NCBI GenBank assembly: GCA_963731415.1
Contig: CAVSVN010000010.1
Coordinates: 7,738 to 71,737 of the forward strand
Direction of reading: 5' to 3'
DNA: 64,000 nt
Source of the DNA: an uncultured Chloroflexia bacterium
Lineage (GTDB): Bacteria; Chloroflexota; Ktedonobacteria; Ktedonobacterales; Ktedonobacteraceae
Every line of letters starts with the position of its first letter. Within the stretch, counting starts at the first letter, position 1. The position numbers and the translations under genes were made by a program. Shown one piece after another: positions 58,970-62,216 of this stretch. Under the pieces are notes generated by a model. The model did not search any database. It saw only the letters and a program-made list of their open reading frames with translations, and had not been told where the DNA came from.

Positions 58970-61963
58970 TTAGTGATCATCTATAGAGGATTCTGTAGAA
59001 GACGGTTCCTCTTGTTTTGAGGTTCTCTGTCGGCGCAACTCCTTCGCCTCTTTGTCTCGATGCAAGCGTTCTAAAAGAGAGGCATACTTTTCTCGTACCA
59101 ATTCGACAGGTGGATGCTCAGGGCCAGCCGTCCCGAGAAGGAGAATAGCGATTGCTCGATGAAGCAACGGTACTGCTTCCTCATCCCTCTGTTGATCGAT
59201 CAGCACATCTGCCAGGTTGTTCAGGCTCAACGTGATATCAGGATCAGTTGGGTCCAGGAACTGTTTCTGGATGGCTAATGCGCGTCTCAAAAACGCTTCT
59301 GCTTGTTTCTCATTGTGTATATTCCGGTAGAACTGTGCCAGGTTATTGAAAAAAAGAGCCATATCAGGATGTAGTTCCTGTATCTGTTCATAGATGCTCA
59401 GGGCACGTTGGTAAAGCGGCTCTGCCTTCTGGTACTGTCCTTGCTTGTTGGCGAGGAAGGCCAGATTATTGAGAAAGAGAGCCACATCGGGATGTGGATG
59501 TTCTAGTGTTTGCTCGCCAATCGCCAGTGCTTGCTGATAACGTTCCTCGGCTTGCTGGTTATCACCGCGCGACTCAGCGATGCCTGCCAGTTTATTGAGG
59601 CTATGAGCCGTCTCAGGATGTTTCTTTCCCACTGTTTTCATACTCAGAGTGAGAGCACGCTGATAGAACTGCTCAGCTCGCTGGAAGTTTCCTTGCTGTT
59701 CAGCAATGGAACCCAGGCCATCTAGGGGATGTATCAGGTCAAGGTCGTCAGCAGAGGGGGAGCGTTCGTAGATCGTGAGCGCACGGGAATAGGTCGTTTC
59801 GGCTTCAGCGTAGCGTTTCTGGTACAAATACATCAGAGCGAGATTGTTCAAGGTTTTGGCGACATCGGGGTGGTCAGGACCTTTGCTGCGCTCCTCCAGA
59901 GCGCGTACACGCAGATAAAGGTTCTCAGCCAGTTTATACAGCCCTTGATCTCCATAGAGCATGGCGAGGTTGTGGAGACTCTCTGCCGTTTTGGGATGGT
60001 CGGCGTCCAGCTCCTGTTCTCGCAGCTCAAGTGCATGCTCATGCAGTTCCTTCGCTTCCTGATAATGAGCCAGTTCCGTATGCAGGAGCGCTAACGAGTT
60101 CATTGTCTGCGCTGCATCGAGCCTGTCTGCGTGCAGATGATCTCTATAGAGGTTCATCGCCTGGGTGAGGTATGTTTCGGCCTCGGCGTAGGCTGCCTGC
60201 TGGAAGCGATACGTACCCAGGCGCTCTAAAAGCAGGGCTCCTTCTTTTATTGTAAGCTCATAGTGAGAGATCAGGGTGGCGCACTGTTGTGCATGAGGAA
60301 GATAGCGCTGGCAATCGTCCCAGGTATCAAAACGGACCTCTGGGAAGACGTGATTGATCAGATGCACGACCAGGCGAGCGAAGCGACGTTGTTGTTCCAG
60401 CGGAAGCTTCTCGATGAGCACACGCTGGACAAGGCGATGCATCTGGAGGAGTGCTCTATTATCGGGACTCCGGTAGAGGAGGGAGAAGCTGAGCAAAGCA
60501 GCGAAGGACTGATGGCGTGTTTGTGGGTTCGTGATGAGCATACGTAATGGTCCGCGAAGGACTGATACTCCATTGACGAGAAGTCTTTCAAAGATGGCAT
60601 CAGGGTGCAAAAAGGCCAGCAGATGTAATAAATCCAGATTTGCGTCGGACTCCTGCGCGAACTGTTGAAAGACGAGTTCGAGCGTACTCATCACGGATTT
60701 GTGGTGACCATTTGCCGCTTGTTTGCCCTGGCTTAACAACCATAATTGCTGCTGTTCATAGAGGTCAAGATAGGTGCTGAGATCGCAGCCAGTTTTTTCA
60801 ATGTAGGCTCCCGCTTGATCGAGTGCGAGAGGAAAGCCGCCCAGAGCATCTGTGATGGCCCTGGCCTTCTGCGCGATATCTGTCGGAGCCTCGTCAAGGG
60901 AGGCCTGAGGGGAAAGAAGTGTGGCACGACGCAGCAAGAACAATGTACCTGGATCGGTATCCATCGATGCAATTGTGATAGGGGTAGCATGACCGCCGGT
61001 GTTCTGCTCACGCGTAGTCAAAAGAACGTGTCCACGGCTTTGAGGAGGAACGATCAGCTTCATCAGGTTGAAATCTTCCAGGTAATCGAGCACGAGAAGC
61101 CAGGTTGGTCTGTTTTGCAGGCAGTGCTGGAACGTGGTAAAGAGGTGCTTCTCATTTTGATCATCTTCCACTGAGAGGGAGAGTTGAGTGGCATACGTAC
61201 TGACATCCTTGCTTAAGAGAGCACGAGACGACGCATTGAGCCAGAAGATATCCTGGTATGCTGAAGAGAAGCGAGAACTATACGCCTGGGCAATTTGTGT
61301 TTTGCCCATGCCAGCCATGCCATTAAGAGCTAAAATGGCGGTGGAGTGATTCTCAGCGGAGGCGAAGGAAGAGGCGATTTGCGCAAGAACGGTTTCGCGA
61401 TCCGTAAAAAGACTCGTGTTGATATGTGAGATTGTGGAGGTAAAAGTATGGCGAGGAGTTGTGTGAGGGTATAGTGTCTTGGAATCAACAATTTCCTCGA
61501 CCACAAGGCGGATTCCTTTTGCCACTTCAAGAAGCGCGTCATCACGACGAGGCCACTGGCTCATGGGAACGCCATTGGAAGGAAGCGATTTATAGCGAGC
61601 AAGAGGAGAGATGTCTTGATCTATGGGACGCAACACTACGGGGATCAAGCGTACAGATCCTGTGCTAGCCAGTGCGAGGGCTGGTTGCATTTCGTGCTCA
61701 TAACAGTGCTCAGAGGCAAGGTAATCGGGGCTAACGAGCAAGACGATAATCACCGCAGCGTTCAAGTGGGCCTGAAGGGACTGTATCGTATCGCTCCCAG
61801 AGCTGATCGTGTTGCTGTTGCACCAGAGAAGGTCAGGATACTTCTTTTGCAAAGGAACTAGATGGCTCATAAGGCGCTTGCATAACCTTTTATCCCGGAG
61901 GGAGGAGGTGTTATAGGAGAAGAAGATTTCTTTCCCTTTGAAGTGAGATGAAATTGACATCAT
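58970..61963 (-). CDS. TIR / NB-ARC (STAND NTPase) / TPR-repeat protein
   Basis: TIR_2-like N-terminus (IFFSYNTS...VIIVLLVSPDYLASEHCYEHEM). Walker A GMAGMGKTQIA, Walker B WLLVLDYLED and the GGFPLALDQAG motif. About 10 KLC-type TPR units follow (HP.TA.SLNNLA..Y...G.Y..AE.LY.RAL). Intact 997 aa. Confidence 0.9.
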   Translation of the reverse strand: MMSISSHFKGKEIFFSYNTSSLRDKRLCKRLMSHLVPLQKKYPDLLWCNSNTISSGSDTIQSLQAHLNAAVIIVLLVSPDYLASEHCYEHEMQPALALASTGSVRLIPVVLRPIDQDISPLARYKSLPSNGVPMSQWPRRDDALLEVAKGIRLVVEEIVDSKTLYPHTTPRHTFTSTISHINTSLFTDRETVLAQIASSFASAENHSTAILALNGMAGMGKTQIAQAYSSRFSSAYQDIFWLNASSRALLSKDVSTYATQLSLSVEDDQNEKHLFTTFQHCLQNRPTWLLVLDYLEDFNLMKLIVPPQSRGHVLLTTREQNTGGHATPITIASMDTDPGTLFLLRRATLLSPQASLDEAPTDIAQKARAITDALGGFPLALDQAGAYIEKTGCDLSTYLDLYEQQQLWLLSQGKQAANGHHKSVMSTLELVFQQFAQESDANLDLLHLLAFLHPDAIFERLLVNGVSVLRGPLRMLITNPQTRHQSFAALLSFSLLYRSPDNRALLQMHRLVQRVLIEKLPLEQQRRFARLVVHLINHVFPEVRFDTWDDCQRYLPHAQQCATLISHYELTIKEGALLLERLGTYRFQQAAYAEAETYLTQAMNLYRDHLHADRLDAAQTMNSLALLHTELAHYQEAKELHEHALELREQELDADHPKTAESLHNLAMLYGDQGLYKLAENLYLRVRALEERSKGPDHPDVAKTLNNLALMYLYQKRYAEAETTYSRALTIYERSPSADDLDLIHPLDGLGSIAEQQGNFQRAEQFYQRALTLSMKTVGKKHPETAHSLNKLAGIAESRGDNQQAEERYQQALAIGEQTLEHPHPDVALFLNNLAFLANKQGQYQKAEPLYQRALSIYEQIQELHPDMALFFNNLAQFYRNIHNEKQAEAFLRRALAIQKQFLDPTDPDITLSLNNLADVLIDQQRDEEAVPLLHRAIAILLLGTAGPEHPPVELVREKYASLLERLHRDKEAKELRRQRTSKQEEPSSTESSIDDH

Positions 61964-62216
61964 ACCTATCTCTCAGGAAACTCAAGCGAGTTGTAGCTCC
62001 CTGCATGTAAGTGCAACGGGCAGGAAGGTGTATTCCCTGTATTTCTTCCTTCTCTTCTATTGTAGCATAAGCTGTTGGGATTGTATATAATGCTATCAAT
62101 TTAAGTATTGCTCTCTTTTCTTCAGTCGAGAGTTCTTCCACCAGGTTCATCAGCGAACGAACTACCTTGCGCAGATTTTCATCTTCAATGGTGCTGAGAT
62201 CAATCTCTTCTTGCAT
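61911..62216 (-). CDS. Small acidic helical ORF upstream of, and overlapping, the TIR-STAND gene
   Basis: 101-aa ORF overlapping the STAND start by 53 nt. The Shine-Dalgarno (AGAGG) is weak and there is no recognisable domain. Confidence 0.35.
   Translation of the reverse strand: MQEEIDLSTIEDENLRKVVRSLMNLVEELSTEEKRAILKLIALYTIPTAYATIEEKEEIQGIHLPARCTYMQGATTRLSFLRDRYDVNFISLQRERNLLLL

Follow-up and report, generated by a model that had tools for sequence, protein, structure and literature searches.

Here, we describe a gene for a STAND NTPase, and the sequences around it, in DNA from an uncultured bacterium of the Ktedonobacteraceae (contig CAVSVN010000010.1, positions 7,738 to 71,737 of the forward strand). 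We refer to this whole stretch of 64,000 nucleotides (nt) as "the window". The gene lies on the reverse strand and encodes a protein in which a TIR domain is followed by an NB-ARC-type nucleotide-binding switch and an array of TPR units. A preliminary description of the window, made from the sequence alone, had reported this layout, compared it with bacterial NLR and Avs proteins, and put forward a 101-amino-acid (aa) open reading frame (ORF) overlapping the start of the gene as a possible partner or regulator. The gene is intact and evolutionarily constrained, and we consider it probable that it encodes an NLR-like receptor; the small ORF, judged from related loci, is not a partner gene.

Gene and domain organization

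The STAND gene and its parts are as follows (coordinates are those of the window; the basis of each assignment is given in brackets):

58970..61963 (−): TIR/NB-ARC/TPR STAND gene, 997 aa, ATG start, intact (ORF list, Pfam, PADLOC, NCBIfam)
61484..61963 (−): TIR domain, aa 1–160 (TIR_2, ThsB-like TIR, Foldseek)
61691..61693 (−): codon of the putative catalytic Glu91 (conservation among homologs, profile alignment)
61397..61483 (−): disordered, fast-evolving linker, aa 161–189 (pLDDT ~30, dN/dS 0.5–1.1)
60668..61396 (−): NB-ARC nucleotide-binding and helical domain, aa 190–432 (Pfam, motifs, PDB profile matches)
60248..60667 (−): winged-helix/DUF7779 region, aa 433–572, with MHD-like M508-H509-R510 (Pfam, conservation)
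59024..60247 (−): ten kinesin light chain (KLC)-type TPR hairpins, aa 573–980, presumed sensor (Pfam, KLC1/2, model, DNA repeats)

The ORF is the longest in the window, the runner-up having 613 aa, and the short motifs quoted in the preliminary description are all found in its translation: CYEHEM at residues 87–92, GMAGMGKT at 215–222, LLVLDYLED at 289–297, and GGFPLALDQAG at 375–385. Pfam detects TIR_2 at residues 13–117 (E 9e-10; 39.5 bits vs a cut-off of 28), with a second profile, TIR, also above its cut-off (23.4 vs 21.3 bits). NB-ARC follows at residues 204–432 (E 2e-13; 50.8 bits vs a cut-off of 23.5), then DUF7779 at residues 435–522 (E 6e-11) and many TPR units from residue ~590 to 940 (TPR_12, E 1e-64; TPR_10, E 8e-58). 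The NCBIfam FxSxx_TPR equivalog (NF040586) matches residues 185–984 with 326.9 bits, against a cut-off of 300. PADLOC (PADLOC-DB 2.0) reports a ThsB-like TIR (E 4e-25), a generic TPR, and two insignificant matches.

An AlphaFold2 model built from a 77-sequence alignment (pLDDT 85.8, pTM 0.79) begins with a TIR domain of beta-alpha type, from which a disordered linker (residues 161–182) leads to a P-loop domain with its helical and winged-helix parts; a series of helix pairs follows. Ten regular pairs with a 42-aa period occupy residues 573–978, and the DNA encoding the TPRs contains repeats spaced 123–126 nt apart. In a profile search against PDB sequences, the array matches kinesin light chain KLC1/2 with an E value of 1e-71. 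Together, the Pfam matches, the model, and the PDB profile search bear out the three-part architecture, including the estimate of about ten kinesin-light-chain-like units.

Other searches of the locus were largely negative. No Rfam family matches it at the gathering threshold, and none matches at E ≤ 1 over 57600–62600. A phage origin of the protein finds little in the phage collections: IMG/VR yields two weak matches (21–23% identity), and the matches in PHROGs are at the level of the repeats.

Relatives and selection

The TIR-AP-ATPase(NB-ARC)-TPR architecture has already been described in multicellular bacteria (PMC7159879; bioRxiv 10.1101/2020.01.06.895854). A protein search with the window protein scored 8,000 candidates, 1,123 of them at E ≤ 1e-10. 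Named relatives belong to the Ktedonobacteraceae or to Ktedonosporobacter rubrisoli, three paralogs of which are among the top 55, and named homologs are 42–51% identical over the full length. NCBI names these relatives "FxSxx-COOH system tetratricopeptide repeat protein" or "TIR domain-containing protein". An 89%-identical copy is present in a metagenome-assembled genome labeled "uncultured Chloroflexia bacterium". Several paralogs share a genome or a locus, reflecting expansion of the family. The family is therefore known, large, and automatically annotated, and the window gene is a further, uncharacterized member of it.

Seven pairwise comparisons (Nei-Gojobori) of the window gene and its orthologs give whole-gene ratios of nonsynonymous to synonymous substitution (dN/dS) of 0.14–0.24. 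By domain, relative to the window gene, the values are:

TIR: 0.18–0.31
Nucleotide-binding domain (NBD): 0.14–0.28
Winged-helix domain (WHD): 0.12–0.24
TPR: 0.12–0.21
Linker: 0.5–1.1

Because dN/dS is low in each folded domain, the gene is under purifying selection throughout, and it is functional. Selection to keep the gene had previously been suggested on the grounds that it is intact among broken genes. The suggestion of selection stands, but the argument does not: low dN/dS speaks for function directly, and more strongly than intactness among broken neighbors does. Synonymous divergence is uneven along the gene. Relative to the related loci L001 (the closest ortholog) and L006, dS is 0.35–0.39 in the TIR and NBD half and 0.19–0.26 in the WHD and TPR half, a gap of about 2-fold that hints at recombination or gene conversion inside the gene.

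The TIR domain

The putative catalytic residue of the TIR domain is the second glutamate of CYEHEM, Glu91. Residue 91 is Glu in 116 of 120 homologs, with Met as the next residue in 109 of them, and it is invariant in a further family alignment (A3). The family profile places Glu91 on the Glu of the SxWCxxEL motif (SDWCWD-EL in Cat1, SEWCHY-EL in TLR1/6), with a one-residue insertion. The preliminary description had pointed to a conserved acidic residue in this string; it is indeed conserved, and it aligns with the catalytic position at the start of helix alpha-C. The TIR profile matches Cat1 with an E value of 4e-10.

A Foldseek search with the full-length model returns mostly TPR matches, although the RPP1 resistosome core is also recovered. 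The TIR domain was therefore modeled alone (pLDDT 86). The best matches of this model are all TIR domains: RPPT-TIR, RPP1, the SPARTA TIR (TIR-APAZ), SARM1, AbTir, and ThsB2. The domain may be competent as an NADase.

The nucleotide-binding switch

The motifs expected of an NB-ARC switch are present and conserved, as had been proposed from GMAGMGKT, LLVLDYLED, and GGFPLALDQAG. In the 77-sequence alignment, the Walker A residues G215, G220, K221, and T222 and the Walker B residue D293 are invariant. Sensor 1 (TTR at 316–318) and the GLPL-like GxP motif (G376, P378, and L379, within 376–385) are conserved. The MHD-like H509 is kept in 67 of 77 sequences, and Q513 in all 77. In the PDB profile search, the NTPase part matches AfsR, NRC1, and Roq1, and the TIR and NB-ARC regions together are collinear with the plant TIR-NLR (TNL) Roq1 (query residues 4–380 to chain residues 6–390; E 4e-9). 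NACHT, the domain of the bNACHT proteins, scores 15.5 bits in Pfam, below its cut-off of 26.7, whereas NB-ARC passes.

The promoter, leader, and 101-aa ORF

Upstream of the STAND gene, the following features overlap one another:

61964..62090 (−): promoter and 5′ leader of the STAND gene (DNA homology, promoter scan)
62082–62087 (−): −35 element TATACA (promoter scan)
ending at 62059 (−): extended −10 element TGnTACAAT (promoter scan)
61911..62216 (−): 101-aa ORF, a chimeric, non-conserved frame that overlaps the STAND ORF by 53 nt

In blastn comparisons with orthologous loci, the homologous DNA begins, with few exceptions, at or close to 62090, which is 127 nt upstream of the STAND start codon. 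Just inside this boundary, a sigma-70-like promoter (TATACA-17-TGnTACAAT) is predicted at 62087..62059, and its extended −10 element (TATGnTAnAAT) is invariant in nine loci. The leader RNA has a weak predicted hairpin, with a consensus energy of −3.7 kcal/mol. The STAND gene would act as a single-gene unit with its own sigma-70-type promoter and a leader of ~90 nt.

This arrangement bears directly on the 101-aa ORF. The ORF exists, with the 53-nt overlap that had been described; it is open in the window, it has an acidic, helical N-terminus, and gene calling on the source contig recorded it (P0121). These features would be consistent with a translated product that partners or regulates the STAND protein, but we consider this extremely unlikely. 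First, the ORF has no full-length homolog: a search of 5.8e9 proteins recovers, over the full length, nothing but the ORF itself, and in an exhaustive HMMER scan of 1.8e9 representatives only three short ORFs (P0132, P0134, and P0135) match, over residues 1 to 31–35. The N-termini of these ORFs align with the start of the 101-aa ORF; they are otherwise unrelated. Second, DNA homology among loci begins at or near 62090, downstream of the ATG of the ORF, which sits 126 nt outside the conserved block. The ORF is therefore chimeric. Codons 1 to ~31–35 derive from a recurrent element unrelated to the STAND locus, and codons 41–101 are the conserved leader and the start of the TIR-encoding region read out of frame. 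Third, the frame is not conserved beside homologous STAND genes. In L001, which is 89% identical, a stop codon leaves an ORF of 30 aa; in L002 the frame starts elsewhere; and in L005 and L012 it is fragmented. Lastly, because the conserved promoter lies in the leader, STAND transcription probably starts inside the 101-aa ORF, at a predicted site near 62052. On these sequence comparisons, the ORF is a chance frame across a junction, and not a partner gene.

A stretch of ~200 nt just upstream of the boundary (62121–62321, reverse strand) is 71% identical to L017, a 705-bp metagenome contig, where it encodes the N-terminus of a 77-aa coiled-coil ORF and includes the sequence before it. Homology to L017 reaches past the ATG of the 101-aa ORF into its upstream sequence. 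By its sequence, 62121–62321 is a truncated fragment of a recurrent element. A Pfam search for the parent gene gave coiled-coil noise only. The fragment may stem from the N-terminus of an insertion sequence (IS) transposase.

A conserved ~4-kb cassette

Conservation of the locus extends beyond the gene in both directions:

58083..62090 (−): conserved ~4-kb cassette comprising the promoter/leader, the STAND gene, and the convergent ORF-X (blastn boundaries)

The upstream flanks of most loci have no detectable DNA similarity to one another. The outer flanks include a methylase and a helicase in L001, a sigma factor in L002, cytochrome bd in L005, IS elements in L009 and L013, and nadA/nadC and glnA in the window. 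We define the cassette as ~58083..62090 because the upstream boundary is the same across loci and two deleted copies keep both ends. These copies, in L019 (5869–7635) and L020 (5146–6912), retain the leader with 350 nt of the TIR-encoding region, the last TPRs, and the downstream end, and they share both cassette ends (62096 and 58083) with the window copy. Since L019 and L020 are internally deleted, the cassette evidently decays in some genomes. Terminal repeats were considered as transposon ends and rejected: the matches found are short and chance-like, for example a 22-nt direct repeat with 77% identity at 58216 and 62090.

Fuller copies of the cassette run on into a Zn-finger/GIY-YIG-like gene of 359–368 aa that is not in the window. 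In L012 (28–5611) and L013 (331–5742), the cassette is followed by this gene (359–365 aa) and then by a second TIR-NB-ARC-TPR paralog. The second paralog, ~3 kb from the ortholog, lies tail-to-tail with a gene for a GrrM/OscB-family, cyclophane-forming radical SAM/SPASM maturase (394 bits vs a cut-off of 310) and an 86-aa ORF. This arrangement may link NLR-like proteins to ribosomally synthesized and post-translationally modified peptides (RiPPs).

Such a link is the core of the main alternative to a receptor for conflict. The window protein could be the sensor and effector arm of a modified-peptide system, of the cyclophane RiPP or FxSxx-COOH-like kind, in which the KLC-type TPRs bind the host's own or a neighbor's radical-SAM-matured peptide and the TIR output serves kin discrimination, development, or peptide-linked conflict. 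The FxSxx_TPR equivalog match, above its cut-off, is consistent with this, as are the paralog beside the maturase in L012/L013 and the placement by Kaur et al. of TIR-AP-ATPase-TPR genes beside FxSxx peptide systems (PMC7159879). Moreover, KLC TPRs bind short peptides in the PDB structures that the array matches, and the TPRs are under strong purifying selection. We nonetheless regard this alternative as fairly unlikely, for three reasons: (i) the FxSxx_TPR model aligns only with the generic NB-ARC and TPR part of the protein; (ii) neither a radical-SAM ORF nor a homolog of the L012/L013 maturase or 86-aa ORF occurs in the window, and no peptide ending in FxSxx is encoded near the gene; (iii) nothing of the kind is present in five of the seven distinct contexts examined either (L001, L002–L004, L005, L009, and L011). 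The searches behind the second point covered ORFs of at least 200 aa with a CxxxCxxC motif (none in the 64-kb window), a tblastn search of the window with the cyclophane maturase (negative), and ORFs ending in FxSxx (none near the STAND gene, of which 2 kb is visible on the upstream side, and four scattered chance matches >14 kb away).

ORF-X and its homopolymer

Downstream of the STAND gene, the cassette contains two further features:

58279..58973 (+): ORF-X, convergent and split by a frameshift here; 232–267 aa where intact elsewhere
58505..58515 (no strand assigned): C11/G11 homopolymer inside ORF-X; sequence context kept across loci, length 8–11

By tblastn, ORF-X is conserved beside the STAND gene in nine loci, and it is also found beside a second paralog in L011. 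Its ten database homologs are all unnamed or called "hypothetical protein". Recurring motifs are TPPQVDxxxYR and KPEKPKPERKGDKGSRRVKRPKV; there is no domain match in Pfam, PADLOC, PHROG, or NCBIfam. In a six-frame comparison, the dN/dS of ORF-X is 0.45–0.8, barely below that of the other five frames, and its status as a coding sequence is doubtful.

The homopolymer, in the context ATCTACCT-Gn-TATTA on the STAND strand, lies 460–600 nt beyond the STAND stop codon in the window and in L001–L006, L009, and L011–L014, and it is kept in every related locus that retains this part of the region. Within the close ORF-X group, the six intact copies all have a tract of nine bases. Three loci with broken ORF-X have eight; L011 also has eight but is intact in its own register. 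In L002, where ORF-X is broken, the tract has ten bases, vs nine in L003 and L004, with identical STAND proteins in all three. In the window it has eleven, and ORF-X is split. Either this is a contingency tract prone to mutation, or its varying length is an assembly error at the homopolymer. This conserved, variable homopolymer, together with ORF-X, is the only unusual feature of the locus, and it lies outside the part of the window singled out in the preliminary description (58970–62216).

These observations raise the possibility that ORF-X is a true partner and that the homopolymer switches it on and off (phase variation), tuning or licensing the STAND receptor. The association with the STAND gene in nine loci with differing outer flanks, and with the second paralog of L011, fits this idea. 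So do the persistence of intact 232–267-aa copies with 60–82% identity, the constancy of nine bases in the intact close copies vs eight, ten, or eleven in broken ones, and the change between L002 and L003/L004 despite an identical STAND protein. We consider it unlikely, however: the dN/dS of ORF-X is close to that of non-coding frames, no library holds a matching domain, the composition is R/S-rich and of low complexity, and what is conserved in parts of the region may be the DNA or an RNA, not a protein. In addition, differences in tract length could be assembly errors at long homopolymers. A more elaborate version treats the STAND gene as the cargo of a mobile ~4–5.5-kb cassette (promoter/leader, STAND gene, ORF-X, and, in fuller copies, the Zn-finger/GIY-YIG-like gene), with tract slippage (nine, on; eight, ten, or eleven, off) phase-varying an ORF-X that gates the receptor. 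This is quite unlikely, in our judgment; if true, it would represent phase-variable control of a bacterial NLR via a previously unrecognized partner.

Possible mechanism of the STAND receptor

Overall, we favor the view that the product of this locus is a functional NLR-like receptor of bacterial type, a STAND protein of the NB-ARC (AP-ATPase) clade, and we consider this probable, though well short of certain. It builds on what is observed: the architecture, the conservation of the catalytic-position Glu and of the nucleotide-binding motifs, and purifying selection on every domain. The proposed course of activation is modeled on characterized STAND/Avs proteins and plant TNLs; in particular, a TPR-sensor STAND mechanism is established for Avs proteins (PMC13581612).

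By analogy, the protein in its resting state would be an ADP-bound, autoinhibited monomer, kept closed by the WHD, with the MHD-like His509, and by the TPR array. A protein or peptide ligand bound in the concave face of the ten KLC-type TPRs would release autoinhibition, allowing nucleotide exchange at the Walker A/B site and then oligomerization. Oligomerization would gather the N-terminal TIR domains into composite active sites around Glu91, and these sites would hydrolyze NAD+, leading to NAD+ depletion or an ADP-ribose-derived signal. In a filamentous, multicellular host, the outcome would be that an infected or compromised cell stops growing or dies.

A role in biological conflict is suggested by the expansion of the family, by its variable contexts, by the defense neighbors in two loci, and by earlier comparative work, which assigns TIR-AP-ATPase-TPR proteins to the conflict systems of multicellular bacteria (PMC7159879; bioRxiv 10.1101/2020.01.06.895854). 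The L001 ortholog directly follows genes for an HmaB-like methylase and an SNF2/DrmD/HmaA-like helicase, and the L011 ortholog follows genes for a ThsB-like TIR protein and a type III restriction endonuclease-like helicase. The likeness to NLR and Avs proteins drawn in the preliminary description holds in part. The sensor-switch-effector layout and the collinearity with Roq1 support it; membership of the Avs group is not supported, no Avs model in PADLOC having matched.

Several observations weigh against a receptor for conflict. First, the immediate neighbors in the window are housekeeping genes (nadA/nadC, glnA, and cofE/cofD), with no defense island. Second, no Avs model was matched in PADLOC-DB 2.0, a library older than Avs6–21, which it does not cover. 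Third, the Trp of SxWCxxEL is replaced by R, Q, or H in the STAND family, and the one-residue insertion directly precedes the Glu. Fourth, the second acidic position of Walker B is not conserved. Fifth, the TPRs, the presumed sensor, are as strongly conserved as any part of the protein (dN/dS 0.12–0.21) and thus bear no arms-race signature; they could respond to a conserved self or peptide signal and not to a phage protein. Lastly, we found no experimentally characterized member of the Ktedonobacteria-centered clade in the literature.

The replaced Trp and the housekeeping neighbors would also suit an inert relic or a non-immune housekeeping scaffold, in which the TIR domain is a protein-interaction module only; some TIR domains, such as those of TLR1/6, are indeed scaffolds. 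We regard this as very improbable: purifying selection acts on all domains, including the invariant Glu91 and Walker A Lys, and massive expansion of paralogs in variable contexts is typical of conflict genes.

Genomic neighborhood

Two genes of NAD biosynthesis, an intact nadA (371 aa) and the apparent 3′ end of nadC, lie directly upstream of the STAND gene in the same orientation (62624–63990, reverse strand). The position of nadA/nadC beside a gene for a predicted NAD+-cleaving TIR protein is probably a coincidence of the insertion site, the adjacency being absent from other loci. Further away, at ~12–15 kb, are a SUKH-1 (SMI1/KNR4) immunity-type protein (44127–44603, reverse strand) and a DUF6114/DUF6230 gene pair (46312–47432, forward strand).

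The preliminary description portrayed the window as full of broken genes, which is true of some genes only. On the other side of the STAND gene, glnA (~56190–57559, forward strand) is split by five or more frame changes within 1.4 kb; its peptide segments are well conserved, and no homopolymer reaches 6 nt. Either the gene is a true pseudogene, or the assembly is locally rich in errors here. At 48276–50250, a BPD permease (two BPD_transp_1 pieces) and an NMT1-type binding protein (two pieces) are both split. An FMN riboswitch (50458–50621, reverse strand; 110 bits) lies upstream of this split ABC transporter operon (48276–50621). In a large serine recombinase gene (32958–34074, forward strand), the Resolvase and Recombinase pieces are in different frames. 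Intact genes, on the other hand, include those for CofE, a nitroreductase, and CofD (52031–54390), NadA, an ABC ATPase, DUF6114, and DUF6230. Uniform sequencing error was considered as an explanation of the broken genes and rejected: glnA has its frame changes without such a homopolymer, yet the 3-kb STAND gene, nadA, and cofE–cofD are clean.

Comparison with known systems

The TIR domains nearest by sequence are those of Thoeris ThsB and of Cat1, both NAD+-processing, as judged from the ThsB-like and Cat1 matches above. Unlike these, the window TIR is fused to its own STAND switch. There is no ThsA or CRISPR partner among the annotated neighbors (NadA, NadC, ORF-X, glnA, and cofE/cofD), so the pairing that defines Thoeris is not seen here. 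The closest solved bacterial NB-ARC by sequence is that of AfsR, one of the SARP-type regulators of actinomycetes (8k60; E 3e-10), and TPRs follow NB-ARC in both proteins. AfsR, however, is a transcriptional regulator with a DNA-binding SARP domain at its N-terminus, whereas the window protein has an N-terminal TIR and no DNA-binding domain.

Relative to the FxSxx-COOH system, the window lacks a nearby FxsA precursor (with C-terminal FxSxx) and an FxsB radical SAM/SPASM maturase. In addition, its TIR is fused to NB-ARC-TPR, whereas FxsC and FxsT have separate NCBIfam models. Avs/AVAST proteins (Avs1–21; PMC13581612) share with the window protein a single polypeptide that combines an effector, a STAND ATPase, and a TPR-like sensor, and by analogy the same ligand-induced oligomerization would be expected here. 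The Avs sensor is irregular, bilobed, and TPR-like; by contrast, the window protein has a regular 42-aa KLC-type array and an NB-ARC-type NTPase.

Plant TIR-NLRs, such as Roq1 (7jlv) and RPP1 (7dfv/7crc), are collinear with the window protein over TIR and NB-ARC, and they have in common with it the MHD-like His, the GxP motif, and a Glu at the catalytic position. Their sensor consists of leucine-rich repeats (LRRs) and a C-JID, vs a TPR array in the window protein, whose repeats after TIR-NB-ARC are not LRRs. The window protein also has no EDS1-type pathway, and its TIR motif has the one-residue insertion and no Trp.

The best correspondence is with the NLR-like proteins of multicellular bacteria described by Kaur and Dyrka, which have a domain order identical to that of the window protein; NF040586, too, is above its cut-off. 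In prokaryotes, the nearest counterparts of plant TIR-NLRs are the TIR-NB-ARC-TPR proteins found in filamentous bacteria. Our analysis removes the small upstream ORF as a false lead and points instead to the leader, and to the downstream region with its variable homopolymer, as conserved features. The window gene, an intact and constrained member of this group that has its own promoter, would be a sensible choice for work on NADase activity, oligomerization, and ligands.

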